64,000 bases of DNA from Nannocystales bacterium (GCA_050633305.1 JBOEGF010000018.1:800001-864000); one strand, 5' to 3'; shown: positions 1-39,844, counted from the first letter of the stretch. Program-made: numbers and translations. The notes: a model not told the origin generated them from the letters alone.

Positions 1-1818
1 GTCGCGATCGGGGCGGATGGTTCGAGGGTTCTCGCGGCCAGTCAGGACGGGACGGCCTCGGTTTGGAAGGCTTCGGCTGGGGCCCCTGGACGACGGACCG
101 TGCTCGAGGCGGGGACGGAGGAAGAGCCCGCGCAGATCCTCGACATCGAAATCTCGGCGGATGGGGAGTGGGTGTTGACCGGTCATTCCAACGGCATGGC
201 GCGGCTGTGGGACCCCTCCCGCCGTATTCCCAAGCTCACCGCACTGACGATGGAGGGCCACGAGGGGGCCGTGTCACAAGTCGCCTTCACGCCCGACTCG
301 ACGCTGGCGATCACGGCGGGTGACGACAAGAAACTCAGGATCTGGAACCTCGAGGCGAAAGACCCGTCGTTGAGCGCGCCGACCTTCGACCTGCACACGG
401 CGCGGATCACCGACCTGGTGGCGGTGAGTGACCCGTCCCCGACCGGCCCACGGCGACGACTTGCCGCGACCGCGAGTGAAGATGGCACCGTGCGGACGTG
501 GAACCTCGAACGCCGCGACCACGAGCAGGACAGCAAGGTGTTCACCGTCGCGGGGGACAAGGCCACGGCCGTTGCGCTCTCGAGCGATGGTCAGGCGATT
601 CTCGGTGGCGCGAGTTCCGGCGAGGGGACTTTGTGGCCCGCACAGTCGTCCGCACCTCCGGGGGCATCCGCGGTGGGGTGGGGACACTCGAAGCAGGTTC
701 TGGCGGTCGCGGTGAACACCGTGGGCACGCGGATGGTCAGCGCGAGTGCAGACGGTACGGCCAAGCTGTGGGACCTGACCAAGCCGGGTCGAGCCGGACT
801 CCTCGCGACGCTGGCGAAAAACACTGGGCAAGTCGTGTCGGTGGCCGTGTCTCCCTCGGGCAAGTTCGTGGCGACGGGCGATAGCAACGGTGCGATTCGC
901 CTGTGGGACATCACGAAACCCGACCCCGCGGCCGACGCGATGGCGCTCGATCAACATCGCCGCGGCGTGCAGCAGATTCAGTTCACCAAAGACGGAACCC
1001 GTCTCATCTCCCGTTCGAGCGACTCGGTTTGCGTCTGGACGATCGCGCAGGACATCACCAAGACCGTCATCAAGCTCAAGCAGAAGGATGAGCTGGTCGG
1101 TTTTGCAGCGTCGGATGACGGCAAGACCCTGCTGACGGCCGGGGTCAAAGAGTTGCGGTTGTACGACCTCAAAGCCGCGGATGTTCCTGCGAGCGCCAAA
1201 GCCCTTCGTCGTGCGCACAGCCTCGATGTGCTGCGGGTCGGCATCAGTCCTGACGGTCGGTGGGCGGCGTCCTCGGCAAAAGATGCAACGCTCGTGTTGT
1301 GGGACTTGGCCAACGGCGCCAAAGCCTTGGAGATTCTCCTGCACGAGAAGCCGGTCGACGCCATCGCGTTCAGCCCGGATGGCCACTGGCTCGCGACGGG
1401 GAGTCAGGACACGACGATTCGGCTGTGGGACCTACAGAGCAGACAGCCCAACCGACGCAGTGTGAAGGTACTCGAGGGGTCCGAGCAGAGGATCAGCGCA
1501 TTGCGCTGGAGCGCTGACAGTCGCTATCTCGTCGGCGCGAGCAACGACCAGACGATGCGTGTCTACGACATGCGGCAGGAGGACCCCGCAGCCGGTGCCG
1601 TCATGCTCACCGGACATACCGGTCTGATCAGCGCTATCGACCTCAGTGAGGACGCGACGATCGTCGTCAGCGCTTCGTACGATTTGACGGCTCGGGCGTG
1701 GCCGTTGACCGCGGGCAAGTTGGTGTCCATTGGCTGCGCGCGTGCGGGCCGATCGTTGACGCCCGACGAGTGGTCGCAGGCGTTCGGCGACACGCCCTTC
1801 CGACGCGTCTGCGGGTAG
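1..1818 (+). CDS. WD40-repeat protein, C-terminal part (5' end outside window); possibly a STAND-NTPase/WD40 protein
   Basis: Frame is open from base 1 (VAIGADGSRVLAASQDGTASVW...). Many GH...WD/WN repeats. Ends in ...GCARAGRSLTPDEWSQAFGDTPFRRVCG. Confidence 0.9.
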   Translation, partial: VAIGADGSRVLAASQDGTASVWKASAGAPGRRTVLEAGTEEEPAQILDIEISADGEWVLTGHSNGMARLWDPSRRIPKLTALTMEGHEGAVSQVAFTPDSTLAITAGDDKKLRIWNLEAKDPSLSAPTFDLHTARITDLVAVSDPSPTGPRRRLAATASEDGTVRTWNLERRDHEQDSKVFTVAGDKATAVALSSDGQAILGGASSGEGTLWPAQSSAPPGASAVGWGHSKQVLAVAVNTVGTRMVSASADGTAKLWDLTKPGRAGLLATLAKNTGQVVSVAVSPSGKFVATGDSNGAIRLWDITKPDPAADAMALDQHRRGVQQIQFTKDGTRLISRSSDSVCVWTIAQDITKTVIKLKQKDELVGFAASDDGKTLLTAGVKELRLYDLKAADVPASAKALRRAHSLDVLRVGISPDGRWAASSAKDATLVLWDLANGAKALEILLHEKPVDAIAFSPDGHWLATGSQDTTIRLWDLQSRQPNRRSVKVLEGSEQRISALRWSADSRYLVGASNDQTMRVYDMRQEDPAAGAVMLTGHTGLISAIDLSEDATIVVSASYDLTARAWPLTAGKLVSIGCARAGRSLTPDEWSQAFGDTPFRRVCG

Positions 1819-1886: not shown

Positions 1887-3158
1887 CTAGCCGGGTTGCG
1901 TGGTGCTCGACGATTTCGGTGGCGAGATCGCTGACGCGCCCACGCCGAGTCGTTTGACCAGAGCTGGCAAGTCCACATCTCCGGCGGACTTGAGCTGCTC
2001 GAGCAAGCTGGCGACTTGCCCCGCGGTGTCTCCACTTCCATCGCCCACCACCGTCAGCTTGTCGACCTTGACGTTGTCGATCGTCCCAACGAGGAGGCCG
2101 ACCAAGGTCCGGAGTTTCTCCATGACGAAGATCTCGCGAGCGTTGCCTCCTGCGGCGGTCCATGCCTTGGCCAGGTGCTTCATACCGCGAGCGGTGGCTT
2201 CGCCCTCTTCCTTGATCGCGGCCACGCTTGCGCGAGCTTCGGCCTCCTTCTGCGTCTTGTAGGCTTGCGCCGGCGCAACGAGGTCGGCATCCAGCTGGAA
2301 TCGGACCTGCTCGATTCGAGCGGTTTGGACCTGCATCTCTGCACTTGCCCGGGCGATCTGGGCATCGATGGTGCTCTTCTCGCGCGCGACGGTGGCGGCT
2401 CGACGAGTCTGTGCGGCGACGATGCGCTTTTGTGCCTCTGCGTCGGCGAACCCGCGATCGGCTTTGAGCTGGGCGATCTGGGTTCGATACAGGTTCTCCG
2501 CCTCTTGGACCATGGACTTGGCCTTTTGTTCGGCCTCCGCCTTACGGGCGTCTCGGATGAGCTCCGCGCTGGGCACTCGGCCGATCGCGTCGAGGTAACC
2601 GACGTCGTCGGAGACCGTCTGAATCTTGAGGGTGTCCAAGCTCAGGCCCAGTGCCTGCAGGTCGACCTCGGCTTCTTCGATGAGCTCGGCGGCGAACTTC
2701 TCCTTGTCCTCGTTGACCTCTTGTGGCGTCAGCTTGGCGAGGACCCCACGAAGGTTGCCCTCCAGGGTTTCTCGGGCGAGCTGAACGATCTCTTGCTTCG
2801 ACTTGCCCAGCAGGCGCTCGACTGCGTTGTCGAGGCCCGGAGGGTCCCCGTCGATCTTGATGTTGGCGACCCCCTCGATGTTGAGTGGGATGCCGTCTCG
2901 GGAGTACGCCCCCTTGACACCCACGCTCACCACGATGTTCGTGAGGTCCATCGACTCGACCTTCTCGAGCAACGGGATTCGCAGACCGCGACCGCCACGG
3001 ATGGCGCGGTAGCCCACCCGCTGGTCAGCTCGGCGAGCGGGTCCAGAGAAGATCACGACCTCGGAGGGGTCGCAGATGACGAGCAGGCTGTTGATCGACA
3101 AGCCGATCGCAACGAGGGCGACAACGACGACGACGGCAATGATGATGACGGGTTCCAC
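1887..3158 (-). CDS. Flotillin-family (SPFH/band 7) protein, paralog 2
   Basis: N-terminal TM; SPFH motifs (IPLLEKVESMDL, ETLEGNLRGVLAKLTPQEVN); Ala/Glu-rich coiled coil. GTG start overlaps the upstream stop at 3158. Confidence 0.9.
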   Translation of the reverse strand: MEPVIIIAVVVVVALVAIGLSINSLLVICDPSEVVIFSGPARRADQRVGYRAIRGGRGLRIPLLEKVESMDLTNIVVSVGVKGAYSRDGIPLNIEGVANIKIDGDPPGLDNAVERLLGKSKQEIVQLARETLEGNLRGVLAKLTPQEVNEDKEKFAAELIEEAEVDLQALGLSLDTLKIQTVSDDVGYLDAIGRVPSAELIRDARKAEAEQKAKSMVQEAENLYRTQIAQLKADRGFADAEAQKRIVAAQTRRAATVAREKSTIDAQIARASAEMQVQTARIEQVRFQLDADLVAPAQAYKTQKEAEARASVAAIKEEGEATARGMKHLAKAWTAAGGNAREIFVMEKLRTLVGLLVGTIDNVKVDKLTVVGDGSGDTAGQVASLLEQLKSAGDVDLPALVKRLGVGASAISPPKSSSTTQPG

Positions 3159-4486
3159 TATCGCACCTGCCCTGTGGGGAGTTGGGGTTTCGAGGGCGGG
3201 GCCGGTCGCCGAAGCGCGGGCGCCTTCTTGGGGGCGGTGAGGATCGAGACCACGTCCACACCGACGGTGTCTCGGATGCGGTCGAAGATCTCCGAGACCA
3301 CGGCCGGGTACGAACCAACGTGGCGGGCGAGGGTCTTGCCGTCACCGCCATCGATCAGATTGACCTCGTTCACGTCGAGACGGTCGGTCACCGCGGCGAC
3401 GTCACCGATGATGCGGTCGATCTGCTGAATCAAGAAAATCTCATTTGCGTCCTCGCCCGCGGTTCGCCACGCAGCGAGCAGCGCGTCGAGGGCTTCGCCC
3501 TGGGCGCGGCCGGTCTCTGCCCGAATCGCCGCATCTCCCGACGCGCGCAACTCCTGGGCGGCACGCCGCTTGTCCGCGGGGACGACCGTCTCAGCCTCGA
3601 GTCTCAGCTTCTCAAGTCGACCTCGGATCTGCTGCAACTCCTGCTCAGCGACGGCTCGTGCTTCGAGTCCCGCAGCGATCGTCCGCTCTTCCTCGGAGGC
3701 GGCTGCAGCGTCGAGTTCTGCCTTGTGCCGCTCGAGGTCGTTGGTCTCTTCGATGATCCGGGCGTGGGACTGCTCGAGTGCGACCTTGCCTCGCATCTCG
3801 GCTGCAGAGACGATCTCATCCGCCTCTCGTTTTGCGTTCGACTCTGCGATCTCGGCGTCCTTGACGACCTCCGCGATCTTGATCCGGCTGATCGAGTCCA
3901 GGTACTGAACCTCGTCGGTCACGTGCTGGATCTTGAAGGTGTCGACGGAGAGCCCCATCTGGCCGAGGTCGTCGGCGACCTCGGACTTGAGGTTGTCAGC
4001 CAGTTTTTGCCGGTCGTGGTTGACCTCCTCCGGGGTCATCAAGGCCAACACTCCACGGAGGGTTCCTTCGAGGGTCTCCTTCGCGACAGAGCGAATCTGG
4101 TCTCGCGGTTTGCCGAGAAACCGCTCGATCGCATGGTGCACCAAGAGGTCGTCGTTGGTGATCTTCACGTTCGCCACCGCGTCGACATTGATCGGGATGT
4201 TCCCCTTGGCGTAGGCGCCTCGGATTCGAATGTCGATGGGCATGATGGTCATGTCCATCGAGTCCACTTTCTCCAGGAGCGGGATGCGAAATGAGCGACC
4301 CCCCCGCACGACACGGAACCCGACGGTGTTGCCGTCGGCCAGCGCGACCTTACGGCCCGAGAAGACCAGGACTTCGTTCGGTTTTCCGATGATCAGGAAG
4401 GTTTTGACGATGGCGATCGCCACGAGAAGCACCGCGAGGGTGCTCCCTGAGATAATGCCAACGTCGATCCATACGTTCGGGTTCAT
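3158..4486 (-). CDS. Flotillin-family (SPFH/band 7) protein, paralog 1
   Basis: N-terminal TM; IPLLEKVDSMDM; ETLEGTLRGVLALMTPEEVN; EA-rich flotillin coiled coil. Confidence 0.9.
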   Translation of the reverse strand: MNPNVWIDVGIISGSTLAVLLVAIAIVKTFLIIGKPNEVLVFSGRKVALADGNTVGFRVVRGGRSFRIPLLEKVDSMDMTIMPIDIRIRGAYAKGNIPINVDAVANVKITNDDLLVHHAIERFLGKPRDQIRSVAKETLEGTLRGVLALMTPEEVNHDRQKLADNLKSEVADDLGQMGLSVDTFKIQHVTDEVQYLDSISRIKIAEVVKDAEIAESNAKREADEIVSAAEMRGKVALEQSHARIIEETNDLERHKAELDAAAASEEERTIAAGLEARAVAEQELQQIRGRLEKLRLEAETVVPADKRRAAQELRASGDAAIRAETGRAQGEALDALLAAWRTAGEDANEIFLIQQIDRIIGDVAAVTDRLDVNEVNLIDGGDGKTLARHVGSYPAVVSEIFDRIRDTVGVDVVSILTAPKKAPALRRPAPPSKPQLPTGQVR

Positions 4487-5152
4487 TCATTCCTCCGTGC
4501 TGTAAAGGTTTTGTTCGGGCTCGATCTGTGCGCGTCCGTCTTCGTCGATCCCCAACACCAGCACGCGCGCGCCGGAGGGAAGTGCCCGAGGTTCGGGCGA
4601 GACCGCGAGCATGGTGCGCTCTCGCCCCTGGACTTGGAGCCGGATGCGGGTCACGCCGCCCTCTCGAAGGGGGAGTTCGAGTTCACCCGTGCTGCCGCTG
4701 TAGTCGCCGATGCGCACCGACTCGCCAACGGGGCGACGGAGCCAGCGAACCATCCACGCGCTCGCCGTGCCGACGCTGACCCCGGTCGCGCCACTCATCG
4801 CAGCGACCAACACGGCACCAACGCTGGTGAACTGGGTCAGCAAGGCTCCGGTCAGGCCGAAGAACGCGGAGCCAAACGTCCAGAAACGAAACGACAGCAT
4901 CGGGAGCCACAGCTTGCGCTTGCGAGGTCCCAGTCCGTGGCTCGCATCGGCGACGGTGAGGGCATGCTCTGCATCGAACTCGCCTCCGACACCAGGGCTG
5001 AGTTCCGCGACGTCGGCACCAACATCGAGGCTGCCCTCGAGGTCAGCATCCGAATCGAGGTCGGCGTCGACGTCCTTGCCGATGGCTCCAAGCGTAGAGA
5101 GACCGACGAATACCCCGCCAACGACGAGACAGCTCAGATACAGAGTCAGCAT
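4487..5152 (-). CDS. NfeD-like (YuaF/YqiJ-type) membrane protein, flotillin partner
   Basis: TM, acidic linker, two further TMs (LSFRFWTFGSAFFGLTG) and an OB-fold-like C-terminus. Abuts the flotillin start. Confidence 0.75.
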   Translation of the reverse strand: MLTLYLSCLVVGGVFVGLSTLGAIGKDVDADLDSDADLEGSLDVGADVAELSPGVGGEFDAEHALTVADASHGLGPRKRKLWLPMLSFRFWTFGSAFFGLTGALLTQFTSVGAVLVAAMSGATGVSVGTASAWMVRWLRRPVGESVRIGDYSGSTGELELPLREGGVTRIRLQVQGRERTMLAVSPEPRALPSGARVLVLGIDEDGRAQIEPEQNLYSTEE

Positions 5153-5456
5153 GGGCGAACTAGAGACGATGCGATGCCAACCGAACAGAGGCCTGCGCTA
5201 TTGCAAGCTCGTTCCATGAGCGGGCAGGGGCGACGGTAGCACCGCGGTGCACAGCAGCTGACCGGACGACGGGCTCATCCCCTGACGCCTCGCTACAGGC
5301 CTCGGAACGATGCTCAAGCCCCACCGCGGGGTCGTGCCGTGAGGGGGAGCGCTTGGGTGCGAGCGAATCGGGCGAGGTCGGAGCGCACGGAGCCGACCCG
5401 TCGCAGAGGCCCACCTACGGATGCGAGGTACTCACACCCGCTGGGCAGGCCCGCGG

Positions 5457-7307
5457 TCAGGGTTTGGCGACGGCGCCCTTGCAGTCCGGCTCCCACGGCG
5501 CGCACAAGAAGCGCACGTGGATGTGACTCAAGTGGTCCTGGGAGTGGCGGAACACGCCCTTGGAGGATGCCCGTGGACGGGGCCACTGAATCCACTCGTC
5601 GAGCTCATCCTCGGTGGCGCCCATCTCGACCGCGGCTCGATACACAAACTCCTGGTAGCGCCAGTCGAGGAATACGTATTGGACTGCGCCGGTCTTGATC
5701 AGCGCGCGGACCAGGCCCCATACGGCGTACCAATCAACTTCCTCGAACATCGGGCGACGCGGTTTTTCGCCGCCGCTGTTGAGGTACTTCTTCTTGTAGA
5801 CGCCTTTGATCGTGGGGAGCCAGATGTCGATGTCTCGGCCCGCTTGGTGCGACTTGTGGGGTCGCAAGAGACCACCGTCGCGCGCGCTGATGTCGCTGAG
5901 GATGAGCTCTCCGTCGTAGTCGACGTCTTGACGGAACGCGGCGACGGCCTCTTGCAGGTTTGAGATCGTTTGCGAGCTGCCCCACATCAGGCGCGGCGTC
6001 CTGCGGATGTACAGCGGGCTGGTGGGGAGCTGGATCCCGCCGACGAGCTTTCCGGCGTTCGGTTTTCCGATGGACACGGCGCGGCGGTCAACGGTGAACT
6101 GGGGTAGCGGCTTTCGAGGTAGCCGGGCCTTGTACGGCTTGGGATCGATCCAGATGACGACCTCGGTTCCCGGGGCCAGCTTCGCGTCAGGGTTGTAGGC
6201 CTGCAGTCGGGTGACGGGGACGTCAAATCGCGCGGCGAGCTTGGTCCACGAGTTCTCGCCCGTGTCGACTGTGTACTTGACGCGCGTCTGTGGGAGCGGG
6301 CGGCGCTTGGGCGACTTGATGAGCAGGGTCGTTTCGGCAACCAGCTCTGGCTTATCGGGGTTGAGGAAGTTCCACTGTGCGACGTCGTCCAGGCTGACGC
6401 CGTAGCGCCGTGCGACGTCCGGGAGCGTCTCGAAAGGAATCACGACGTGGTCGATGGGACTGTCGACGTCGCCGATTTCGTCGGGGCTCTCTGCGTCCGC
6501 ACTCGCGCCGCTTGGACCCTCGGGCACCACCTCCGCGAAGCCGCCAATGCCGTCGTCATCGGCCTCGTTGTCTTGCTGCCCGGTCTCTGCGGCGTCTTGG
6601 CTGGCCGCTGTCTCGGGCTCGGCGGACTCGACCTCTGACTCCGGCCACAGCAACACCGCCGCCGTGATCGCGCCGGCGAGCGCGACCACCCCCGCGCCGA
6701 CCCCCAGGAGCTGGGTCATTCGCTTGCTCCCCGCGACCTTGCGACTGGTCGCGATGAACTCGCGCTGCAGTCGACTGATCTCGGGAAGCATTCCCGGTGG
6801 CGCGTTCTTCATCCACTTGGTCGCCCGCGCGAGCTCGTCGCTCTTGAGCGCAAGGTGTGGCGGTCGCCCCTCGTACTCCCACTGCTCGGCGTACCGAAGG
6901 TAGCGGCCATGCAGTTCGCGGTACTTTCGGTTGGGTCCTGGTGTACGGACGATGGACCCACTCGGTGAGAGCAGCTCGGCGGAAGAGGGTGCTCGCGAAA
7001 CCGCGGAGGGGGTCGCGGCAGGGACGAGCTCGACCAGCGTGCTTCCGACGAAGACCCGGTCCCCCGGACGGAGGGGGGAGGGAGCGCTGACGCGTTCGTT
7101 GTTGAGGTAGGTGCCGTTGGTCGACCCGACATCGGTCAGCAACACCCCATGGGGTCCGAGGTCGAGCTGGCAGTGGCGTGATGACACCGCACCCCCGGAG
7201 AGAACCACGTCGTTGAGTGCGGCCTCGCGGCCCAGCGTGAGGCTTTGGCCTCGGAACTGCTCCGTCCTGGAGGACCCGTCGGGGGTGGTGAGCCGGACTT
7301 CGAACAT
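5457..7307 (-). CDS. FHA domain - helical linker - TM - 2x LysM - MepA-like (penicillin-insensitive) murein endopeptidase
   Basis: FHA motifs GR, SSRH, STNGT; TM LLGVGAGVVALAGAITAAVLLW; two LysM-like repeats; LAS Zn motifs HQAGRDID (Hx6D) and HIH. Confidence 0.8.
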   Translation of the reverse strand: MFEVRLTTPDGSSRTEQFRGQSLTLGREAALNDVVLSGGAVSSRHCQLDLGPHGVLLTDVGSTNGTYLNNERVSAPSPLRPGDRVFVGSTLVELVPAATPSAVSRAPSSAELLSPSGSIVRTPGPNRKYRELHGRYLRYAEQWEYEGRPPHLALKSDELARATKWMKNAPPGMLPEISRLQREFIATSRKVAGSKRMTQLLGVGAGVVALAGAITAAVLLWPESEVESAEPETAASQDAAETGQQDNEADDDGIGGFAEVVPEGPSGASADAESPDEIGDVDSPIDHVVIPFETLPDVARRYGVSLDDVAQWNFLNPDKPELVAETTLLIKSPKRRPLPQTRVKYTVDTGENSWTKLAARFDVPVTRLQAYNPDAKLAPGTEVVIWIDPKPYKARLPRKPLPQFTVDRRAVSIGKPNAGKLVGGIQLPTSPLYIRRTPRLMWGSSQTISNLQEAVAAFRQDVDYDGELILSDISARDGGLLRPHKSHQAGRDIDIWLPTIKGVYKKKYLNSGGEKPRRPMFEEVDWYAVWGLVRALIKTGAVQYVFLDWRYQEFVYRAAVEMGATEDELDEWIQWPRPRASSKGVFRHSQDHLSHIHVRFLCAPWEPDCKGAVAKP

Positions 7308-7426
7308 GCGGCGGAGATTCGGGCTTGGCTACGGAGAGTCTGCAAGCGCCTGGCCCGTGGGGGTCCGCCGAGTCGGACCACCGAGCGCTGGCTGTGTGAT
7401 GCGTGCGGACGGCATGGCTCGACCCG

Positions 7427-9385
7427 CTAGAAGGTGAAGGTATGTGTCGCGGCCTCGAGCTTGGTGGTCTTGGCGAACTTTGCGTTGGATCGGACGGCTC
7501 GCACTGCGCAGTTCTTCACGTTTGCCGTCGCGGTGCCGCCTGTTGCACGTGCGCCAAGGACGGTGCCGTCCGGCTTGATGTCGGCGCGGATCTTGACCGT
7601 CATGCCTGGGATTGCGCCTCCACATGACTTGACCTTCCCGGCTGCCTTGCCGAATCCAGCGCGCAGGTCCGCGGAGGTCAGAGCGGCCTTCGGTCCGGCC
7701 TTCTTCGGCGGCTTGCCGCCCTTCTTCTTTTTCTTCTTGCCGGACTTGGGAGGGGTGACGGCCTTGGTGGGCTCGGGCTCCGGTTCGACTTCGGGCTCGG
7801 GCTCGGGCTCCGGTTCGACTTCGGGCTCGGGCTCCGGTTCGGGCTCCGGCCGACCGATCTCGAGTCCTTCGGGCTCGGGTTCGGGTTTCGGCTCAGCTTT
7901 GGGCTCGGCCTTCTCGGTCGGGGTGACCTCGGGCTTGTCGGTCTGTGTGACCTTGTCCTCTTCGGATTCACCCCCGAGAAGCAACCACGCAGCCAGGCCC
8001 CCACCTCCGATTGCCACGATCGCGCCTGCTACGAGCAACGCCACGAACTTCCCGGTGGAGCGACTCTCGGTCGCAAACATCGTGTAGTCGCCACCGCCGG
8101 GTGCGGCCGTCGAAGGGGCGGTCTCGGGCAGGGGCGGCGACGTGGCCATCCCGGCGTGTCCTGGAGGGTTTGTGCCGACGCCACCAGGGGGCGCAACGCT
8201 GGCCGGAGCCATGTTTTGCGGCGGCACCGAAGCAGGGCGGCCCGCGGGATCCCAGCCGTGCGGACCGGGGTGGTGATTGTCGAGCCGTACGGTGCCGTAC
8301 TCGGGGTCGTAGCCGTCCTCTGGATCGAGCAGCAGCGTGCCGCCGCGCGGCTCTTCGGGTGCATGGCTCGGGGGCCGCGCATCGGGCAACCACATCGTGT
8401 TGCCGGCCCCGCCCGCATCGGGTCCGTTGTTCGGTTGGGCCTGCGCGTGGCTCACCGCCATGGGGCCCTCGTAGGCGGAAGCAGCGAGGTTTCCGTCGGG
8501 TCCGATCGCTTCGATCGCCGCGGAAAACTCCTCCATCGACTGGTAGCGGTCTTCGGGCTTCTTGGAGAGCGCCTTGACGATGACCGCTTCGACCGCAGGA
8601 CTGATGTTGGCGTCCGGAGCCTTGGTCGTGGGAGGTGTGAGCGGCTCGGTCAGGTGCTGGCTGAGCACCCGCATGAAGTTGTCCCCATCGTAGGGGACCG
8701 TGCCGGTCATGAACTCGTACAAGCAGACCGCCGCCGCGTAGACGTCGGTCCGGTTGTCCGCCGGCTCGCCACAGGCCTGCTCGGGGGCCATGTACTTGGC
8801 CGTGCCGAACACCGCGCCGGTGCGGGTGAGGCCGCCGCCGTCGCCCGACTCGGGGTCGGTGACCTTGGCGATACCAAAGTCGAGGAGCTTCACGAAGTCG
8901 CGCCCGTCAGGCTTCTTGATCAAGAAGCAGTTTGCGGGCTTGAGGTCGCGGTGGATGATGCCCTTGTGGTGTGCGGCCGCGAGCGCGCGAAGGATCTGCA
9001 CGATGAGCCCCTTCGCGCGGGGCCACGGCAGTCGCTTCTCTCGAATGAGGAGGTCGGCGAGGTCCTCGCCGTCGAGGTGCTCCATCGCGAAGAAGACCGA
9101 GCCCCCCGGGACGGGGCCGAAGTCGACGATGTCCACGATGTTCTCGTGGCCGATCATCGACGCGGCGCGAGCCTCTTGGAGGAAGCGGTCGACCTGCGTC
9201 TGATCTCGACAGAGCTCGTGGTGCAGAACCTTGATCGCCACCTGCTTGCGCAACGTGACGTGCTCGCCGAGGTAGACCGAGCCCATGCCTCCGTCTCCGA
9301 GCAGGCTCAGGACGCGGTAGCGGTCGGCGAGCGTGTGGCCGACCAGCCCCTCGGGCGTCGAGAGAATGGCGCTAGGATCTGTCAT
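7427..9385 (-). CDS. Membrane Ser/Thr (Hanks) protein kinase with Pro/Glu-Lys linker and TonB-C/AgmX-like C-terminal domain
   Basis: [41 protein letters not shown]; (EP)n and poly-K; C-terminal domain with two Cys. Start placed at ATG 9385 (9409 possible). Confidence 0.92.
7771..7834. repeat. Perfect 30-bp tandem duplication encoding the [10 protein letters not shown] linker
   Basis: 7771-7800 is identical to 7801-7830 (gctcgggctccggttcgacttcgggctcgg). Confidence 0.9.
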
Positions 9386-9500
9386 GCGAGCCCGGTGAGC
9401 ATATCGCAAACGTTGTGGGACAGCACGTAACTGAACCCCTCATGGGGGCGTGGTGACTCCGCATTGGAATCGCTGTGAACGCGCCGGGGAGGAGTTGGAC

Positions 9501-10877
9501 CTACCTGGACCGAGCGGCGTCCTCGATCCGACGGATCAGGTTCCCCCGGCCGGCCATCACGCCGGATCCGATCAGGAACTGGTCGCTCCCTGGAGCGCTG
9601 CCGAGAAGCATGATCCCGTGGTCTGCGGCCCGGCTGAGGGCCCCCACGTCGGCGTACTCGCGGGTCGGAATTGTGCGGGGCTCGGAGAACCCCAAATCGA
9701 CGTCATGGGCAGCCGGGGCGACAACAGCGCCGGCTGGGCCCATCGCGCTGCGTAGATCGCCCCCTCGACCGACAGCGGCCGCCAGGACCGAGGCCACCCC
9801 CCAAGCTGCGGAGCCAAGGACCAACCGAGGACCGGCGTGGGTCTCCTCGTGGGTCAGGACGATGGGGTTGGCTGCGCCACACAGCCAGTCAGCCGCCTCG
9901 AGCTCGCGAAGTGCGCTCCAGTCGGGGGAAACGAATGGATCTTCCTCCCGCCAGGCTGCACCGGTGAGGGTCCGGCCGACGCCCACCACGATCGGAACGC
10001 GCAGTCGCGCGGCGAACTCGGTGAGGGCCTCGAGGGTGGAAGGCGGGGTCGCCATGCCCACGAACACCGCGTCGGGTCGTTGGGGGTCGTCATGACGGAC
10101 GCAGCGCTCCAGCGCTTCGAGGATGTTGTCGGGGTCGACGTCGACGAGGTCGATGCCGATGTCCTCGTGCCCCGGGGACGACGCGACCAGCATGCGTAGG
10201 CCTCTCCAGCTCGCCTCGAGCCTGGCCACCACGGGCTGTCCGAGCAGGGAGGCGGCCGCGGCCGCGACGGTTCGCCGGATCTGCTGGGCGGCGTCGACTC
10301 GCGCTTGAACATCCACCACCCCCGTTTGCGCGCGGCTCCCTCGAACCGCGCTGACGAAAGCGTCGAGCCCCGATTTTGCGGTTGCTTTGGGGCTCCCCCC
10401 TGGAAGCTCGGCCATCGCGAAGATGTCGTCCGCGATCGCGACGGCCGGCGCGGGGGCGGCGGCTGCGGGTTCGTCCGGCTCTGGAGGGTCGGGGAGCTCG
10501 GGTTTGTCCTGTTCGGCCGCGAGCTTCGGTTGGAACCGGTCGGCGAGCCCTCCCTTTCCGACGATGCGTTCGACCCGGGCGCGCACGACTTCCGGCGCGA
10601 GGTCGTGCTCTTTGGTGAGGGCCTGCGCGAGATCTCTGAGCTTCCGAAGGGGTTCGACGGCCTCCACCACATCCTCGACCCGGAACGTTCGGGGCCGGTT
10701 GAACTGCAGGGGCACCGGGCCCAAGGCGGCGTCACCGAGGGACTCCGGGAGCATCACAGCGGCGTCCACACCCAGGGTCTTCATCACCGTGGCAAATCGT
10801 TCGCCGGATACGGGGACCTTCTGGCCGGTCGGAGACGTTGTGAAGGTTGCAGCCGCGAGCCATCGGTGCTTTGGCAT
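9501..10877 (-). CDS. T6SS contractile-sheath-like protein: TssB(VipA)-like N-terminus fused to a truncated TssC(VipB)-like domain
   Basis: TssB-like FATVMKTL...LQFNRPRTFRVEDVVEAVEPLRKLRDL. TssC-like LLGQPVVARLEASWRGLRMLV, WSALRELEAADWL and IPTREY...HGIMLL. ATG at 10877. Confidence 0.65.
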   Translation of the reverse strand: MPKHRWLAAATFTTSPTGQKVPVSGERFATVMKTLGVDAAVMLPESLGDAALGPVPLQFNRPRTFRVEDVVEAVEPLRKLRDLAQALTKEHDLAPEVVRARVERIVGKGGLADRFQPKLAAEQDKPELPDPPEPDEPAAAAPAPAVAIADDIFAMAELPGGSPKATAKSGLDAFVSAVRGSRAQTGVVDVQARVDAAQQIRRTVAAAAASLLGQPVVARLEASWRGLRMLVASSPGHEDIGIDLVDVDPDNILEALERCVRHDDPQRPDAVFVGMATPPSTLEALTEFAARLRVPIVVGVGRTLTGAAWREEDPFVSPDWSALRELEAADWLCGAANPIVLTHEETHAGPRLVLGSAAWGVASVLAAAVGRGGDLRSAMGPAGAVVAPAAHDVDLGFSEPRTIPTREYADVGALSRAADHGIMLLGSAPGSDQFLIGSGVMAGRGNLIRRIEDAARSR

Positions 10878-10944
10878 CACAGCGACGGTAACAGGAGTCG
10901 AAGGCGTTCCCAAGGTGGGGCACGGTGGGCGATGCTTCACGCCG

Positions 10945-11397
10945 ATGTCGGTCCGAGCCCTTCTCTTCACCGCCGCGTCCCTGTGTCTCGTCCCGTCTGG
11001 CTGCAAAGATGCGGCCTTCGGGCCCGAGGACGCGACGGCGATTCGCTCGGTCATGGACGCACAACAGGCGGCCTGGAACGCCGGAGATATCGATGCGTTC
11101 ATGCAGGGCTATCACCAGCAGTCCGACGTGGTGTTCACCTCGGGCGGGAAGATTCGCAAGGGCTGGCAGGCGACGCTGACCGCGTATCGGGAGCGCTACG
11201 TCGAGGGAGACGCGAAAATGGGGGCGTTGGCGTTCTCCGACCTGGAGATCCAGGAGCTGGGCCCGGGGGCCGCTGTTGTCCTGGGGCGGTGGGAGCTCTC
11301 GGAGACCCCACAAGCCGGGCACGGTGTGTTCTCGCTCGTGTTCACGAAGGCGCAGGGGCAGTGGGCCATCCTTCACGACCACAGCTCGTCGGAGTAG
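10945..11397 (+). CDS. NTF2/SnoaL-like (DUF4440/YybH-type) lipoprotein
   Basis: Signal peptide ending in PSGC; AQQAAWNAGDIDAFMQGY; C-terminal WAILHDHSS. Confidence 0.8.
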   Translation: MSVRALLFTAASLCLVPSGCKDAAFGPEDATAIRSVMDAQQAAWNAGDIDAFMQGYHQQSDVVFTSGGKIRKGWQATLTAYRERYVEGDAKMGALAFSDLEIQELGPGAAVVLGRWELSETPQAGHGVFSLVFTKAQGQWAILHDHSSSE

Positions 11398-11411
11398 GAT
11401 CGGCTCCGGTC

Positions 11412-11873
11412 ATGTTCATCATCTTTGGCGACAAACACCGCACCGAGACGGTCGCGGACGGGCTTCGGGTGGAGCGGGAATGCCCCGCGTGCAAGACGGT
11501 CGCGATGTTTCGCGAGCGTGTCGTGACCAAGCGGTTCCGGTTGTACTTCGTAGACATGTTTACGCACGGAACGCATCACGTGCTCGAGTGCGGGGAGTGC
11601 GGACAGACGTTCGTGACCGATGAGTTGCCGAAGCAGCAACTCGAGAACGATCAGTCGGGAACCCTTCTTGGGCATGTCCAGGGCCTCGTGGACCGAGGCA
11701 AGGACGTCGCGCGGGACCCTCGTGTTGTCGCCTCGGTGGGGCAGGCTCAGGCGGAGGCCACCCGAGCGCTGGGTGCTGCTCAGCAGGAGGCGACCAAAGT
11801 GTTCGGTACCGCGGAGAAGACCGTGAAGGGGTGGATCTCGGCGTTTCAGCGGCCCTCAAAGCCCGAGACGTAG
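11412..11873 (+). CDS. Zinc-ribbon protein with C-terminal amphipathic 11-mer repeats
   Basis: MFIIFG start; CPAC...RLYFV...CGEC; then AQAEATRALGA / AQQEATKVFGT / AEKTVKGWISA. Confidence 0.7.
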   Translation: MFIIFGDKHRTETVADGLRVERECPACKTVAMFRERVVTKRFRLYFVDMFTHGTHHVLECGECGQTFVTDELPKQQLENDQSGTLLGHVQGLVDRGKDVARDPRVVASVGQAQAEATRALGAAQQEATKVFGTAEKTVKGWISAFQRPSKPET

Positions 11874-12060
11874 TCGGTGTTGGGCCTGCGGGACCTCGAC
11901 CGACGACATGCCGCAGGTCGCTCGAGCCGGGTCGACCCGAACGTGGTCGCGTTACAGACCAGCGGGACGCTCGCAGCTCCGCAGCGCCTGCAGACCCCAG
12001 CTCTGCGCGTCCTGCATCCAGCGCTGGTACTCCCCGCGGGACGCGAGTCGTGCGCCTCCG

Positions 12061-12088
12061 CGCCGGTCGCCGAATATGCCGACCGGCG
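12061..12088. terminator. GC-rich hairpin downstream of the thiolase gene in a convergent intergenic region
   Basis: cgccggtcg-N10-cgaccggcg; no clear U-tract. Confidence 0.4.
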
Positions 12089-12105
12089 AGAGGTGGACCC
12101 TGTCC

Positions 12106-13395
12106 CTAGACCCGCTCGAGAACCGCCGCGGCACCGAGGCCGCCCGCCGCACACAGACCGAGCAGGGCGTGTTCTTTGTCGCTGTCGTGGAGCTCGTTGG
12201 CCATCGTCGTGACCATGCGAGCGCCGGTGGCACCAAACGGGTGCCCGATCGCAACCGAGCCGCCGTGGATGTTCAACTTGCCCGGGTCGACGTTGCCGAC
12301 CGCGTTTTCTTTGCCCAAGCGAGCTTCGGCAAACGCGTCGGACCCCAGCATCTTGAGCACGCTCAGGACCTGAGCCGCGAACGCCTCGTGGATGTCGACG
12401 TAGTCCATGTCGGACATCGACAGGCCCGCTCGGTCGAGCGCCTTCGGCATCGCGATCGCAGGACCCATGAGCAGCTGATCGGTTGGATCCACCGCGACGT
12501 AGGACCAGGAGCGGAAGGCAGCCAGTGGCGTGTAGCCCAGCGCTTTCGCCTTCTCCTCGCTCATCAGCAGCACGGCGGACGCTCCGTCGGTCAAGGGGCT
12601 GGAGTTGCCGGCGGTGAGGGTGCCGTCTTTGGAGAACGCGGCGCGCAGCTTGGCGAGCTTCTCCACGCTGGTGTCCGCACGGACGAGCCCATCGGCGGTG
12701 ACGGTCTTGCCGCCCGGTGTTGTGACGGAAGCGATTTCTTTGCGGAGGCGGCCTGAGGAAATTGCGGCAGCTGCTCGGTGGTGAGACTGGACGGCGAAGT
12801 TATCTTGGGCCTCGCGGGTGATCTGGTTGCGCTTGGCCATCTTCTCGGCCGACTGCCCCATCGTCTCGCCAGTGGACCGTTCTGCGATCTTCGGCATCTT
12901 CGGCAGAATCTCGTTGATCGGCATGAGCTGGCTGAGCACGCCGAGGTAGTCCATCGGCGTCGACTTGCCCATGGCCAAGGGGCCGAGGGTGCGAACGACC
13001 TTCTGCGGAAGCTTGAGTTCTGCGTTCGAGGTGGAGTCGGACCCGCCGGCGATCAGGACGTCGGCGTCACCACGCTCGATTGCGGAGACCGCGTTGGTGA
13101 TCGACTGGAGGCCCGATGCGCAGGCTCGGGTGACGGTGTAGGCCTCGACCGAGGGGGGGAGGCCGAGCTCGAGTGCGAGCTCGCGCCCCACGTTGGGTGC
13201 TGCCTGCGGGAGGATGACACCCCCCCAGACGATCCCTTCGAGCTCCTGGCGCGCGAGCCCGGTGCGCTGCAGCAACGCGTCGACGACCGAGGCCCCCAAC
13301 GCGATGGAGTCCATCTCGATGAAGTCGGTGAAGGCCTTGATGAAGGGGGTGCGAACGCCGGAAACGATGACGGCACATCGGAGAGTCTTGGACAT
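12106..13395 (-). CDS. fadI: Acetyl-CoA C-acyltransferase (thiolase, FadI/FadA2 type)
   Basis: VTRACASG, HEAFAAQ, GHPFGATG and LCAAGG motifs. Confidence 0.9.
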   Translation of the reverse strand: MSKTLRCAVIVSGVRTPFIKAFTDFIEMDSIALGASVVDALLQRTGLARQELEGIVWGGVILPQAAPNVGRELALELGLPPSVEAYTVTRACASGLQSITNAVSAIERGDADVLIAGGSDSTSNAELKLPQKVVRTLGPLAMGKSTPMDYLGVLSQLMPINEILPKMPKIAERSTGETMGQSAEKMAKRNQITREAQDNFAVQSHHRAAAAISSGRLRKEIASVTTPGGKTVTADGLVRADTSVEKLAKLRAAFSKDGTLTAGNSSPLTDGASAVLLMSEEKAKALGYTPLAAFRSWSYVAVDPTDQLLMGPAIAMPKALDRAGLSMSDMDYVDIHEAFAAQVLSVLKMLGSDAFAEARLGKENAVGNVDPGKLNIHGGSVAIGHPFGATGARMVTTMANELHDSDKEHALLGLCAAGGLGAAAVLERV

Positions 13396-22514: not shown

Positions 22515-23416
22515 ACCAACCGTTGCCGCGTGACCCTCGGCTCGCCGCGATGATCCGTGCGGCCCGCGAACAGCCGGCCCCGGCCGTGACGGTGACGGTC
22601 GAGGACATCCGAGCGGAGGCTTCCGGCAGGACATCGATGCGGTGGTGGGGAGGGCTCGCTGCCGCAGCGGTCGTTGCGCTCTCGCTGTGGGCGTTTCGGA
22701 GTGGTGGGGAGGAGACGCCGGCGCCTGCATCCGTCGCGGCGGTGGACGGGTCGGTCGTGGAACCTCCGGTGCAGCCGCGAGCCGCAGCCGCGGACGTGGG
22801 AACGAGTGGTCCGAGGATGGCGGCATCGCTCAGCATTGAGCCGCTCCAGGGCGCGGAGGAAGCGAGGTGGGCGGAAGGGAAGGCCGTGTCGGTGGACGAC
22901 GGTCGATATCGGATTCGAACAACCGAGGCCACGACGGTGTCGGTCGCGGGCCGGGTCCTGGAAGTCGCGGCTGCCAGCCTTGTCGTCGTGGAGGCTGGGG
23001 TGGAGCACAGCTCGTTTCGGGTCGTGAAGGGCCACGCTGCCTGGGTCGAGCCCGAGCCCGAGCCCGAGCTCAGGCCGGATGCCGAACCCGAGTCGCCGGC
23101 GCGTCGACCAGGGGCCAAGCAACTCGCCAGCAGAGCCGAGGCCGCCCTGGTTTCGGGGCGCCGCGAGGAGGCGGTCCGGCTGCTTCGGCAGCTCGTGAAG
23201 GGATACCCGACGGGGGCGGCGACCAAGGCGGGCCTCATCGACCTGGCGCGACTCGAGCAGCGGCTTGGTCGCCCGGACCGGGCCCACTGCGCCTACGCCA
23301 TGTTCGTGAAGCGCTTCCCGACCGATACTCGAACTCCAACGGTTCGGCGCGCGGACGATGCCTTGGGCCAGGCCCCTCGTTGCCGTGGGTTGCGGCCCAT
23401 CGCGAAGTCCGACTGA
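22511..23416 (+). CDS. Putative anti-sigma factor: TM, degenerate FecR-like beta region, C-terminal TPR
   Basis: GTGA overlap with the sigma stop; single TM; TPR-like helices AEAALVSGRREEAVRLLRQLVKGYP. Confidence 0.7.
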   Translation: MNQPLPRDPRLAAMIRAAREQPAPAVTVTVEDIRAEASGRTSMRWWGGLAAAAVVALSLWAFRSGGEETPAPASVAAVDGSVVEPPVQPRAAAADVGTSGPRMAASLSIEPLQGAEEARWAEGKAVSVDDGRYRIRTTEATTVSVAGRVLEVAAASLVVVEAGVEHSSFRVVKGHAAWVEPEPEPELRPDAEPESPARRPGAKQLASRAEAALVSGRREEAVRLLRQLVKGYPTGAATKAGLIDLARLEQRLGRPDRAHCAYAMFVKRFPTDTRTPTVRRADDALGQAPRCRGLRPIAKSD

Positions 23417-23483
23417 ACTCCCGCCGCGCACAACCTGCTGGGCCCCCTTTCAAGTCGAGCCCAAGGGCGCTATTCCACCGCCC

Positions 23484-24548
23484 GTGCACCGTCTTGTGTT
23501 CGTCTTGTCGGCCCTCGCTCTTGTGACCTCGTGCGCGCGGACGCCCGAGCCCGCGCCCGTCGAGCCCGAAGCCGAGTCGTCGGTCGCCGCGCCGGTGTCT
23601 CCTGCACCGGCCGAGGCTGTGCCCGACCCTGAACCTGAACGTGAACCCGAGCCTGAACCCGCACCTGCACCGCCCCCGGTTCCCTCGCTCTCCGACGGAA
23701 CCACGATCGCAGGATGCGACGCGAGCGTGGCGAACATGGCCTGCGTCCCCGGCGGCTCGTTCATCGTCGGCTCCGACGACGGCCCGGAGAACGCACGGCC
23801 CGCGCACCCCGTTGAGTTGCAGACGTTCTATATGGACCTCTTCGAGGTCACGTACAAGGAGTACAAGGACTGCTTCAAGTCCGGGAAGTGCCCCAAGGGG
23901 GGCCCGTTCTACATGGACTTCAACCGCAAGCATCAACCCATCGCCGGGGTGACGTGGTTTGGGGCGCGGACCTATTGCGAGGTCATGGGCAAAGCTCTGC
24001 CGACCGAGGCTCAGTGGGAGGCCGCGGCCCGAGGACCACAGGGGGAGACGTATCCGTGGGGGAACGAGCCTGCCACCTGTGCAAACTCGGTCATCAAGGA
24101 TGGGCGCGGCCGAAGTTGTGGCGTGGAGAAGCGGGGCACCGAGGGGTGGAAAGGGCGACCGTTCATCGTCGGCGCGCGAGACCCCGGCCGCTACGGCCTG
24201 TACGACATGGCTGGAAACAACTGGGAGTACGTGGCCGACTGGATGTCGACGGACTACGCCGAGTGTGGCGAGGCGTGCTTGGGCGTCAACCCCACCGGAC
24301 CCTGTGACGGCGATGATGCCTGTGAGGGACATGGCGAGAAGATCGTCAAGGGCGGGTCGTGGTACTGGTCTGCCAGCAAGGCGGTCGGCTACTACCGCCG
24401 CCCTCAGCCGCCCAACAACCGGCCGTTTCATCACTTCGGGTTTCGTTGTGCTGCGAGCGTCGAGCAGGCCACTGCGCTCGACGGCAAGCCGCTTCCCGAC
24501 AACGCGCCCATCCAGGGCATGAGCAACGCCGACGCAAAACGCCGCTAG
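23484..24548 (+). CDS. Formylglycine-generating-enzyme (SUMF1/FGE-sulfatase) domain lipoprotein
   Basis: Lipobox LVTSC; VPGGSFIVGS, LPTEAQWEAAARG, YGLYDMAGNNWEY, KGGSW, GFRCA. Confidence 0.88.
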   Translation: MHRLVFVLSALALVTSCARTPEPAPVEPEAESSVAAPVSPAPAEAVPDPEPEREPEPEPAPAPPPVPSLSDGTTIAGCDASVANMACVPGGSFIVGSDDGPENARPAHPVELQTFYMDLFEVTYKEYKDCFKSGKCPKGGPFYMDFNRKHQPIAGVTWFGARTYCEVMGKALPTEAQWEAAARGPQGETYPWGNEPATCANSVIKDGRGRSCGVEKRGTEGWKGRPFIVGARDPGRYGLYDMAGNNWEYVADWMSTDYAECGEACLGVNPTGPCDGDDACEGHGEKIVKGGSWYWSASKAVGYYRRPQPPNNRPFHHFGFRCAASVEQATALDGKPLPDNAPIQGMSNADAKRR

Positions 24549-25687
24549 GGCGGGGGCGGCTGGTCGTGACGCCAGTGGTTGATCTGGTCGGACTTGGTTG
24601 GCGGGTGCCCCACGAGAACGTCGCGCACCCGGGTGACGCCGTCCGCCTTGAGCCAGGCCCGGTACTGCTCCAACGGCTGCACGATGTACATGTAGTCGCG
24701 GTTGATCTTCCAGGTGAGCCGGGTCCGAAGCAGCACCGAGGTCTCGTCCCCGTACAGTGTCTCGACATTGCGAACGAACTGAGGGTCGTAGGCGTCCCAG
24801 TACTCTTCGGCGTTGGAGACGTACAGCACCCGAACGGGCACCTGAAGCTCCGTAGCAGCGGCGCTTAGTCCCGCAATTCCCTCCTCGGCGTTGAGGTTGA
24901 TCAGCAGGGGACGGACGCGGTCATTGCGGAGCATCGCTTTGACGTAGTCGAACGTCTCTTGGTCGGTGAGGTACGTCGGAACGTCGACGCCCTTGAGCCG
25001 CTTGTTGAGGGTCCGGAGCCGGTAGCGAAAGTACCGGCGTTGGCGACGAAGCAGGCCCTTGAGGCTGCGGGCTTTCTTTCCGTCGTACATCGCATCGATG
25101 GCCTCGTTTGCGCGTTCGAGGTTTTCCGGCTCGAACATCGCAATGAACTCCTTGGGCGTCTGCGCTGCCGCAAAGACCGCCTTGTACATGGCGTGGGTTC
25201 GGAGGACGGCGCTGTCGTAGTCGATCAGCCAGGCGAGGTGGGGACGTTGCCAGCCCATGAACAGGTAGGCCTGGTCGGGCCCGACGCCAACGTAGCCGCC
25301 GCCGAGGTCCTTGATGTCTTCGTAGAAGGCCCACAGCGCCCACTCGTTTCCGATCGTGTAGTGGACGTCCTCAAGCTCCTTCACGATGCCACCCCGGACC
25401 TCTGGCGTGGTGTCCTCCGCCGAAGACCAGAACGTCGCGCGCTCCGCCTCGCTCAAGGGTGGCACGGTGTCGGCTGTCCAGACCTCCTTTGCCATCGAAA
25501 CCGGAGCGGCGGGCTCGGGCTCGGGCTCGGGCTCGGGGGGCGGGGCCGGATCGGCAGCGGGCCCGGGAGTCGGCGCAGGGGGGGGCGACGCCTCCGCGGG
25601 CGGCTCGGGCTCGGGCGGGGTCGTGGGTGCCGGGCGGCATCCGAGGGCCGATACGGTGGCGAGGGCCAAGAGGACGCGCGCGTTCAT
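24545..25687 (-). CDS. Hypothetical lipoprotein with Pro-rich linker and alpha/beta enzyme-like domain
   Basis: Lipobox ALGC; motifs GNE, GGGYVGVGPDQ, WLIDYD, LYVSNAEEY. Confidence 0.7.
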   Translation of the reverse strand: MNARVLLALATVSALGCRPAPTTPPEPEPPAEASPPPAPTPGPAADPAPPPEPEPEPEPAAPVSMAKEVWTADTVPPLSEAERATFWSSAEDTTPEVRGGIVKELEDVHYTIGNEWALWAFYEDIKDLGGGYVGVGPDQAYLFMGWQRPHLAWLIDYDSAVLRTHAMYKAVFAAAQTPKEFIAMFEPENLERANEAIDAMYDGKKARSLKGLLRRQRRYFRYRLRTLNKRLKGVDVPTYLTDQETFDYVKAMLRNDRVRPLLINLNAEEGIAGLSAAATELQVPVRVLYVSNAEEYWDAYDPQFVRNVETLYGDETSVLLRTRLTWKINRDYMYIVQPLEQYRAWLKADGVTRVRDVLVGHPPTKSDQINHWRHDQPPPP

Positions 25688-37306: not shown

Positions 37307-37322
37307 CCTGCTCGAGGGTACT

Positions 37323-39742: not shown

Positions 39743-39844
39743 TGTCCCCGAGTACCAGACCTCAACCGGGCTCCGAAAGGGCTCCGTGCGCCGAATCCGG
39801 ACCGTGCGGGCAAGTTCCGCGAGCATCGGCTAATCTCCCCGGCC

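Follow-up and report, generated by a model that had tools for sequence, protein, structure and literature searches.

Positions 9501..10877 of the minus strand (stop included) encode a 458-amino acid protein, P0001, in which a TssB-like and a TssC-like part of the T6SS sheath are joined in one chain. The protein is a conserved and, judging from the parts it lacks, non-polymerising sheath paralogue, which is linked to T6SS loci and, in the lineage studied here, also to a module of kinase, FHA proteins and murein endopeptidase. While the fused domain combination was already known (Lossi et al., 2013), the diverged and truncated paralogue appears to be new. The window, that is, the whole stretch of 64,000 nucleotides analyzed here, corresponds to C18:800001-864000 of an 11.0-Mb genome that is 92% complete.

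Sheath homology and missing elements of P0001

The reading frame is open from 11102 to 9501 on the minus strand. The start at 10877 is backed by the N-terminus MPK(H/W)RWL, which is kept in relatives of 457-461 aa. Thus, the 458-aa fused ORF described by an earlier sequence-only reading of this DNA is real. Profile, structure and fold comparisons identified the product as a fused TssB-TssC sheath paralogue, whose parts all lie on the minus strand. The TssB-like segment (residues 1-115; 10533..10877) comprises strands at residues 4-10, 20-22, 38-42 and 54-58 and helices at 62-115, without the TssB N-terminal donor arm. The Pro/Ala linker proposed to separate the two halves was confirmed as a disordered, Pro/Ala/Glu-rich stretch (residues 119-187; 10317..10523) with pLDDT values below 50. 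Two conserved islands lie within it, one of which, the DDIF-motif island (residues 148-158; 10404..10436), was located by profile alignments and conservation. The TssC-like body (residues 189-458; 9504..10313) corresponds to VipB 61-400 and reaches only as far as the first helix of the gp25-like C-terminal domain, without strands beta11-13.

Family models gave scores near or below their cut-offs. PF05943 (VipB) matched residues 198-264 with an E-value of 3e-6 and 26.9 bits (cut-off 27), and a six-frame search of the genome gave 27.8 bits at the fused gene. PF05591 (VipA) matched residues 20-88 on profile positions 52-121 of 155, with an E-value of 4.6e-4 and 20.4 bits (cut-off 24). The TssC equivalog TIGR03355 aligned with residues 164-263 only and scored 31.1 bits, missing its cut-off of 271.5, and TIGR03358 (TssB) scored 17.6 bits against a cut-off of 97.

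Profile comparisons were made with an alignment of 26 family members (A1), which was also used for the AF2 model, and with an alignment including longer relatives of about 550 aa (A2). In hhalign, A1 matched the genome's own TssC with a probability of 97% and an E-value of 5e-11 over 289 columns (query 145-432 on 22-360 of 498). The genome's own TssB was matched with a probability of 85% and an E-value of 6.5e-6 (query 3-90 on 30-125 of 165). Among solved structures, the family profile matched VipB (5mxn_A) at 1.5e-17. For M. xanthus TssB, the E-value was 9.7e-6, and 9e-8 with A2.

The AF2 model reached a pLDDT of 80.7 and a pTM of 0.78, with residues 119-172 and 178-187 below 50. In Foldseek against the PDB, ranks 1-9 were all T6SS TssC chains (E-values 1e-8 to 1e-4). 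VIA-align of the T6SS chains at ranks 1-6, 8 and 9 gave Z 19.6-22.5 and rmsd 2.5-8.0 Å over 222-284 aligned residues, residues 189-458 of the model being superposed on VipB 61-400 and M. xanthus TssC 63-402. Furthermore, the one-chain sheaths of pyocin, AFP and PVC covered model residues 1-458 (Z 17-19). These results show that P0001 is a single-chain TssB-TssC protomer. Its TssC-like part is borderline as a single sequence and clear at the profile level, and its TssB-like part appears to be genuine, yet weak at the family thresholds. Both segments had been recognised in the sequence-only reading, and of the checks proposed there, Pfam gave VipA and VipB near their cut-offs and left VipB_2 (PF18945) unmatched, and AlphaFold/Foldseek returned the TssC fold.

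The dN/dS ratio was 0.07-0.29 across 15 pairs of six orthologues; these values are rough because dS among the orthologues (0.8-1.5) is near saturation. At the level of such sequence comparison, the fused gene is a functional gene under purifying selection. Two DNA datasets, both microbial mat metagenomes, and no RNA dataset were listed as containing positions 7300-11000. A scan of positions 4300-12200 returned no promoter-like site and six terminator-like sites, 5.0 being expected.

The sequence-only reading had suggested that the TssC C-terminal domain is missing, and this holds. PF18945, the gp25-like C-terminal domain of TssC, which occupies residues 385-495 of the genome's own TssC, had no match in P0001, whose alignment to TssC stops at about residue 360-400 of 498. 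The longer relatives in A2 align with TssC 20-492 of 498, the three terminal strands included (probability 98.4%, E-value 8.5e-15), and P0001 and its clade end about 95 residues before them. A split gene was considered and rejected. In the 92% complete genome, PF18945 was found in the two canonical tssC genes and nowhere else. When the terminal 115 aa of five long forms were used as tblastn queries against this genome, the best E-value was 0.12, so that no separately encoded C-terminus was detected. Only 91 bp lie between the stop and the next gene.

At the other end of the protein, the residues before the first strand number 0-19 in all 51 of the 51 family members, compared with about 30 in the genome's own TssB, and the match of P0001 to that TssB begins at TssB residue 30. 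The N-terminal donor strand of TssB (beta1) is absent throughout the diverged fused family.

According to PMC5807055, sheath protomers are knitted by a handshake mesh in the inner layer (domain 1), in which beta11 and beta12 of TssC receive one strand from an adjacent TssC (beta13) and one from an adjacent TssB (beta1); the two proteins form an interleaved sheet in domain 2, and domain 3 is a three-helix bundle. In Lossi et al. (2013; PMC3597794), HsiB1 and HsiC1(1-212) formed a complex and no tubules, and gp18 truncated at its C-terminus is cited there as being soluble. Since P0001 is without the handshake elements described in these papers, the 458-aa protein would be unable to enter the mesh and to polymerise around Hcp. 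The term non-polymerising is firm only for the 458-aa clade because most of the family keeps the C-terminal domain.

In the family alignment, conservation of the linker did not exceed 0.4 except in the two islands. The conserved residues are D150 (0.8), I152 (0.6) and F153 (0.6) in island 1, and D172 (0.8), A173 (0.7), F174 (0.8) and A177 (0.8) in island 2. Every profile alignment placed the islands on the two N-terminal helices of TssC/VipB. In canonical systems, the first of these helices is bound by the ClpV N-domain (PMC5048182), and the second belongs to the domain 3 bundle (PMC5807055). Island 1 is unstructured and undocked in the AF2 model, as expected for a free linear motif. When the ClpV N-domain (L009:7400-7879) was modelled in complex with residues 135-240 of the family alignment, the score was 0.10 against a mark of 0.32, which, without controls, is evidence neither way. 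The DDIF island is moderately conserved (0.6-0.8) and could alternatively serve in intramolecular packing.

Gene neighbourhood and family history

As the sequence-only reading had stated, a scan for T6SS core genes found none within the 64-kb window. However, its description of the fused gene as an orphan, serving a distant T6SS, does not hold. A full T6SS cluster lies just outside the window at C18:768412-796609. It contains tssA, tssC, tssB, tagF, tssM, tssL, tssK, tssJ, an FHA-ATPase gene, hcp, tssE (at C18:784106), tssF, tssG, clpV, two unrelated genes and tagH. The fused gene is 12.9 kb from its tagH end and 37 kb from its tssC. The genome has two canonical tssB/tssC pairs and nine vgrG genes, the latter all away from this cluster. 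Thus, the fused gene is not an orphan and sits beside a complete T6SS cluster with its own tssB and tssC.

The genes that follow tagH encode, in order, a 332-aa lipoprotein, a 209-aa lipoprotein, an FHA-WD40 protein, two SPFH proteins with a small membrane protein, an FHA-LysM-M74 protein, a kinase and the fused protein. The FHA-WD40 protein (1138 aa) starts at C18:798402 on the plus strand, so that the 3′ part of its gene is in the window (1..1818); in relatives, the kinase module is on one side of it and the tagH end of the T6SS cluster on the other. The kinase gene (7427..9409, minus strand) starts 91-92 bp downstream of the fused gene on the same strand and encodes a 660-aa Ser/Thr protein kinase with a kinase domain, a Pro-rich linker, a TM segment and a C-terminal extracytoplasmic part. 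The third gene of this same-strand run (5457..7307, minus strand) encodes a 616-aa protein with FHA, TM, LysM and Peptidase_M74 regions, the last being that of a MepA-like murein endopeptidase. Four FHA proteins are clustered near the fused gene. A zinc-ribbon ORF was also observed near 11390-11873 on the plus strand.

Gene order was read at 25 loci (the locus in the window, L012-L027, L090, L091, L093-L096, L162 and L164). A kinase gene follows the fused gene in 13 of them, and probably also in L093, where the contig end cuts it; the FHA-LysM-M74 gene follows the kinase in 12. The tagH gene was inside the 10-kb flank in L012, L013, L015, L016 and L095, from which the SPFH insertion is absent. 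Distant members (27-30% identity) are embedded in the T6SS cluster itself. The order tssF-tssG-clpV-tagH-lipoprotein-fusion, with the fused gene last, was found in L027 and G380, tagH-lipoprotein-fusion in G365, and vgrG-fusion-clpV-hcp-tssA-tssB in L091; in G120 the fused gene is 7 kb from tssF.

In total, T6SS genes were present in the fetched flank or within 13 kb at 10 of the 25 loci. A tssC gene was found on the same contig at a distance of 25-49 kb in four of seven sampled genomes, and tssF 7 kb away in a fifth. The fused gene is recurrently linked to T6SS core genes, as a Tag-type accessory gene is. No T6SS gene was detected in the flanks of the seven Archangiaceae loci, where the neighbours encode UDG, a 122-aa protein, a TPR protein, a 385-aa protein and GyrA, or within the fetched flank of eight further loci. 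On the complete chromosome of Archangium minus, the fused gene is at 1.43 Mb and the tssC genes are at 2.96 and 4.81 Mb, so that more than 1.5 Mb separate it from the nearest of them. The Archangiaceae loci show that not every copy is linked to a T6SS, and that homologues do not always reside inside complete T6SS clusters, which would have refuted the sequence-only reading. The survey of the genome and of the neighbourhood in relatives, which that reading had called for, revealed a complete T6SS and a recurring kinase order.

When 401 genomes were sampled evenly across the phylum, a full-length member was present in seven, and three more genomes had partial matches in frames of 652-749 aa. The canonical TssC C-terminal domain was found in six of the seven carriers and tssF in the seventh, compared with 36 of the 394 other genomes; these counts are descriptive only and overstate independence because the genomes are related.

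A word-based search recovered 32 relatives. The exhaustive profile search recovered 3318 representatives (clusters at 50% identity) at E-values up to 1e-3 and 236 at up to 1e-30, the count of at least 236 including complete fusions. Of the 150 that were listed, most have a length of about 520-565 aa and cover the whole 543-position profile. A minority of about 435-494 aa end near profile position 465-473, and a third group of 600-650 aa consists of near-complete VipA plus VipB with strong Pfam scores. The ESM Atlas contains 24 clusters of at least 50 members with both Pfam families. Relatives are named 'contractile sheath large subunit' by PGAP, and ten representatives carried one name only, 'T6SS contractile sheath large subunit'. 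This name is misleading for the fused relatives.

A FastTree phylogeny (SH-like support, midpoint root) was calculated from 58 hand-picked rows, namely 44 representatives, seven locus proteins, six fusions of 600-650 aa and the TssC of the genome itself, the other listed proteins being left out. The diverged fused family was monophyletic with a support of 100. All 15 short forms fell into one clade with a support of 98, and this clade was sister to the long forms L017-L019, which already have kinase and FHA-M74 neighbours. In this tree, the 600-650-aa fusions grouped with canonical TssC, apart from the diverged family. Orthologues from many assemblies stop at the same position, and the short-form clade is deep, reaching down to about 40% identity. 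Since the short forms belong to one clade, the sequence data suggest that the truncation of about 95 residues happened once. Probably, tssBC was first duplicated and fused, and the N-arm was lost; the fused gene then resided at the tagH end of the cluster, became associated with the kinase module in lineages of the Nannocystaceae type, and was finally truncated once. A search for still longer fused forms found none with P0001 (803-2290 aa) or with A2 (1071-3055 aa), which is weak evidence.

Proposed role and competing explanations

To our knowledge, the current account of T6SS sheath assembly, length control and ClpV recycling involves only TssA/TagA caps, TagJ and ClpV. From the observed homology, fold, missing parts, conservation, T6SS linkage and kinase gene order of the fused paralogue, we infer its solubility, binding partners and regulatory role. 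We lean towards the explanation that it is a soluble accessory or regulatory protein of the T6SS, which mimics the outer surface of the sheath for the ClpV N-domain or TssA-type caps and which is here coupled to the kinase and FHA proteins. The idea of a repurposed sheath protomer, put forward in the sequence-only reading, agrees with a diverged, conserved paralogue of the genome's own TssB and TssC that is without polymerisation elements. The distant T6SS which it was suggested to serve is replaced by the cluster adjoining the window and, in relatives, by clusters in which the fused gene is itself embedded.

P0001 retains domains 2 and 3 of TssB/TssC, which form the middle and outer layers, and bears the N-terminal helices of TssC on its flexible linker. 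The two elements by which protomers are knitted together have been lost, the TssB donor strand in the whole family and the TssC inner domain with beta11-13 in the 458-aa clade. According to this proposal, the protein would then be soluble, would not polymerise around Hcp and would act as an accessory or regulator of the neighbouring T6SS, to which it may present the sheath outer surface as a mimic. The exposed DDIF helix and domain 3 might engage the factors that read the sheath, the ClpV N-domain first and TssA-type caps second. ClpV is the preferred candidate because conservation in the linker is confined to the part that serves canonical sheaths in ClpV recognition and in the packing of domain 3. 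In the present lineage, the activity of P0001 could be coupled to the Ser/Thr kinase with which it would be co-transcribed and to the FHA proteins (TagH, FHA-WD40 and the FHA-LysM-M74 endopeptidase).

The other explanations were weighed against the same data. P0001 might be a component of a Ser/Thr-phosphorylation module, that is, a substrate or scaffold of the adjacent kinase which is bound by FHA proteins and controls the FHA-LysM-M74 endopeptidase and envelope remodelling, with a T6SS ancestry and little present role in the T6SS. The recurrence of the fusion-kinase-FHA-M74 order (kinase at 13 loci and probably a 14th, FHA-M74 at 12), the four FHA proteins clustered nearby and the Archangiaceae copies unlinked to T6SS are consistent with such a module. 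However, no kinase gene adjoins the fused gene in the flanks of the T6SS-embedded members L027, L091 and G365, and long kinase-type fused forms were not found, although the latter is weak evidence; we give this explanation a minor chance. P0001 might also be a specialised structural piece of the sheath, such as a low-copy terminal or baseplate-proximal subunit or a cap that docks one end of TssBC via domains 2 and 3. Extracellular contractile injection systems possess several sheath paralogues at defined positions. The full domain 2/3 fold, the position of the gene in or beside T6SS clusters, and the acceptor hairpin and C-terminal donor strand kept by the long forms would fit a structural piece. 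Nevertheless, both the acceptor hairpin and the donor arms are absent from the 458-aa clade, which therefore cannot join the handshake mesh (as described in PMC5807055), and we regard a structural piece as unlikely.

The two remaining explanations are both very improbable. The weak family scores and the missing C-terminal domain would be expected of a functionless remnant of a decaying tssBC duplicate, or of an assembly or frameshift artefact that cut the C-terminus. Such an origin is at odds with the dN/dS values of 0.07-0.29, the stop position common to orthologues from many assemblies, the monophyly and depth (about 40% identity) of the short forms, the 91 bp from the stop to the next gene and the confident AF2 fold. 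A working sheath of a second, minimal T6SS, in which one piece stands in for TssB and TssC, has its precedent in the complete 600-650-aa TssB-TssC fusions that exist and are noted in Lossi et al. (2013; PMC3597794). However, these complete fusions group with canonical TssC and not with the diverged family, both T6SS loci of the genome have their own tssB and tssC, and P0001 is without the handshake domain and the N-arm.

Returning to the soluble accessory protein, a widespread sheath-derived protein of this kind is absent from the current T6SS picture, and a sheath protomer that occurs naturally in a soluble, monomer-like form would be valuable for structural work on the state before assembly. 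The arrangement of the fused gene with those for a kinase and an FHA-tethered murein endopeptidase hints that Ser/Thr signalling, wall remodelling and T6SS firing are connected in myxobacteria. It is conceivable, although doubtful, that the family represents a new class of T6SS regulator, in which a soluble sheath mimic titrates or pre-positions ClpV or caps through domain 3 and a ClpV-recognition helix that is always exposed, and thereby times the building or recycling of the sheath. The truncated Nannocystaceae clade would then have been rewired to a kinase/FHA checkpoint that also controls a wall-opening peptidoglycan endopeptidase.

Comparison with known sheath proteins

In the literature covered, to which subscription journals contributed little, we found no study of a natural diverged fused sheath paralogue. 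The sole mention found is one sentence, in Lossi et al. (2013; PMC3597794), on proteins that combine DUF770 and DUF877, which sometimes occurs, as in a 622-aa protein of the gamma-proteobacterium HdN1. Like such proteins, the complete fusions of 600-650 aa carry TssB and TssC on a single polypeptide, as P0001 does. They differ from P0001 in scoring strongly with Pfam over nearly the full VipA (profile 18-150) and VipB (1-301), VipB_2 being present in one of four scanned. Since they group with canonical TssC, these fusions look like one-piece working sheaths, unlike the diverged paralogue.

Further proteins for comparison are the long forms of about 520-565 aa (for example, those of Archangium, Paraliomyxa, L027 and L091). 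They belong to the same monophyletic family and share the fusion point, the linker islands and the loss of the N-arm. Unlike the clade of P0001, from which about 95 residues were lost, they possess the C-terminal domain of TssC up to residue 492 of 498.

With the canonical TssB/TssC pairs (VipA/VipB and HsiB1/HsiC1; PDB 3J9G, 5MXN, 5N8N and 5URW), P0001 shares the fold of domains 2 and 3, the WRGL(K/R)M helix, the IPT motif, the N-terminal TssC helices and a gene that adjoins a T6SS cluster. It differs in being one chain rather than two, in the absence of the TssB donor strand and of the gp25-like inner domain of TssC (beta11-13), in an identity of only about 20%, and in being additional to a canonical pair. 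P0001 was not classed as a sheath subunit because it fails the C-terminal domain and the equivalog score for TssC, and the N-arm and the Pfam cut-off for TssB.

The laboratory truncations HsiB1-HsiC1(1-212) and gp18(1-510) are similar in that their C-terminal part is gone and they still fold, giving a B-C complex or a soluble protein and no tubules (PMC3597794). These were engineered, whereas P0001 is a natural and conserved truncation at approximately TssC residue 400. Finally, the fold of the initiator TssE/gp25 is that of the domain lost by P0001, as is reflected in the Pfam name of PF18945, 'gpW/gp25-like'. TssE is the converse case, consisting of the handshake domain only.

Neighbors of the fused gene and complete TssB-TssC fusions

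The gene of the 458-aa TssB-TssC sheath paralogue (fused gene) is divergent from a DUF4440/SnoaL-like lipoprotein gene, and the start codons of the two genes are about 64 bp apart. After the lipoprotein gene comes a small ORF that is rich in Cys and zinc-ribbon-like (window 10942-11873 for both, plus strand).

A second lipoprotein, of 332-383 aa, was always found after tagH: at C18:796714-797712 (plus strand) in the genome of the window (G000), at 8761-9909 in locus L027, and in loci L162 and L164. In L027 and in genomes G380 and G365, it immediately precedes the fused gene. No match to this protein was detected in Pfam or NCBIfam. It may represent a T6SS-associated lipoprotein that has no name yet.

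The profile search of the fused family also recovered complete TssB-TssC fusions of 600-650 aa (P0129-P0182). These form a separate group, have strong Pfam scores and cluster with canonical TssC. In the phylum sample, partial matches were found in 652-749-aa frames of G230, G315 and G110, and these may belong to the complete-fusion group.

SPFH/Band-7 genes and other genes of the window

Two SPFH/Band-7 genes and a gene for a 221-aa membrane protein (window 1887-5152, minus strand) separate the FHA-WD40 gene from the FHA-M74 gene. Among the loci of fused-gene relatives, L096 possesses an SPFH/Band-7 pair and a small membrane protein at the same place. This block is missing at the corresponding place in L012, L013, L015, L016 and L095. 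Therefore, it is a lineage-specific insertion.

At window 23358-25687, an FGE-sulfatase-like gene (plus strand) adjoins a DUF7790 gene (minus strand). In Paraliomyxa, both domains are present in one 657-aa protein (L018:15853-17823), encoded directly after the FHA-M74 gene. At window 36515-39826 (minus strand), an N6/N4 DNA methylase gene (37323-38180) is placed between genes for 285-aa and 548-aa proteins, neither of which had a Pfam match; the three genes possibly form a module for restriction-modification or defence.

FHA proteins and M74 endopeptidases

The product of the FHA-M74 gene (window 5457-7307, minus strand) is a membrane protein. Its FHA domain lies in the cytoplasm, and the chain continues with a TM segment, a LysM domain and a murein endopeptidase domain (M74, MepA-like, LAS-type). 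At window 59279-60613 (minus strand), a second gene for a murein endopeptidase (Peptidase_M74) was observed, in this case lacking an FHA domain.

The 1618-aa protein encoded at window 49500-54356 (minus strand) is a further FHA-tethered envelope enzyme of the same region: its FHA domain lies around residue 240, and its C-terminus carries two DsbA/thioredoxin domains. Outside the window, the T6SS cluster contains, between tssJ and hcp, a gene (G000:C18:780710-783307, minus strand) whose 865-aa product combines FHA at the N-terminus with a secretion ATPase domain of the TadA/VirB11 type. A 1046-aa relative is encoded in Archangium minus, 3 kb from the fused gene (L020:4185-7325).

In 12 loci, the Ser/Thr protein kinase gene is followed by the FHA-LysM-M74 gene. 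The FHA-LysM-M74 protein could be a phospho-regulated enzyme that opens the wall for the T6SS. T6SS-associated peptidoglycan hydrolases are known, and their role is comparable to that proposed here.
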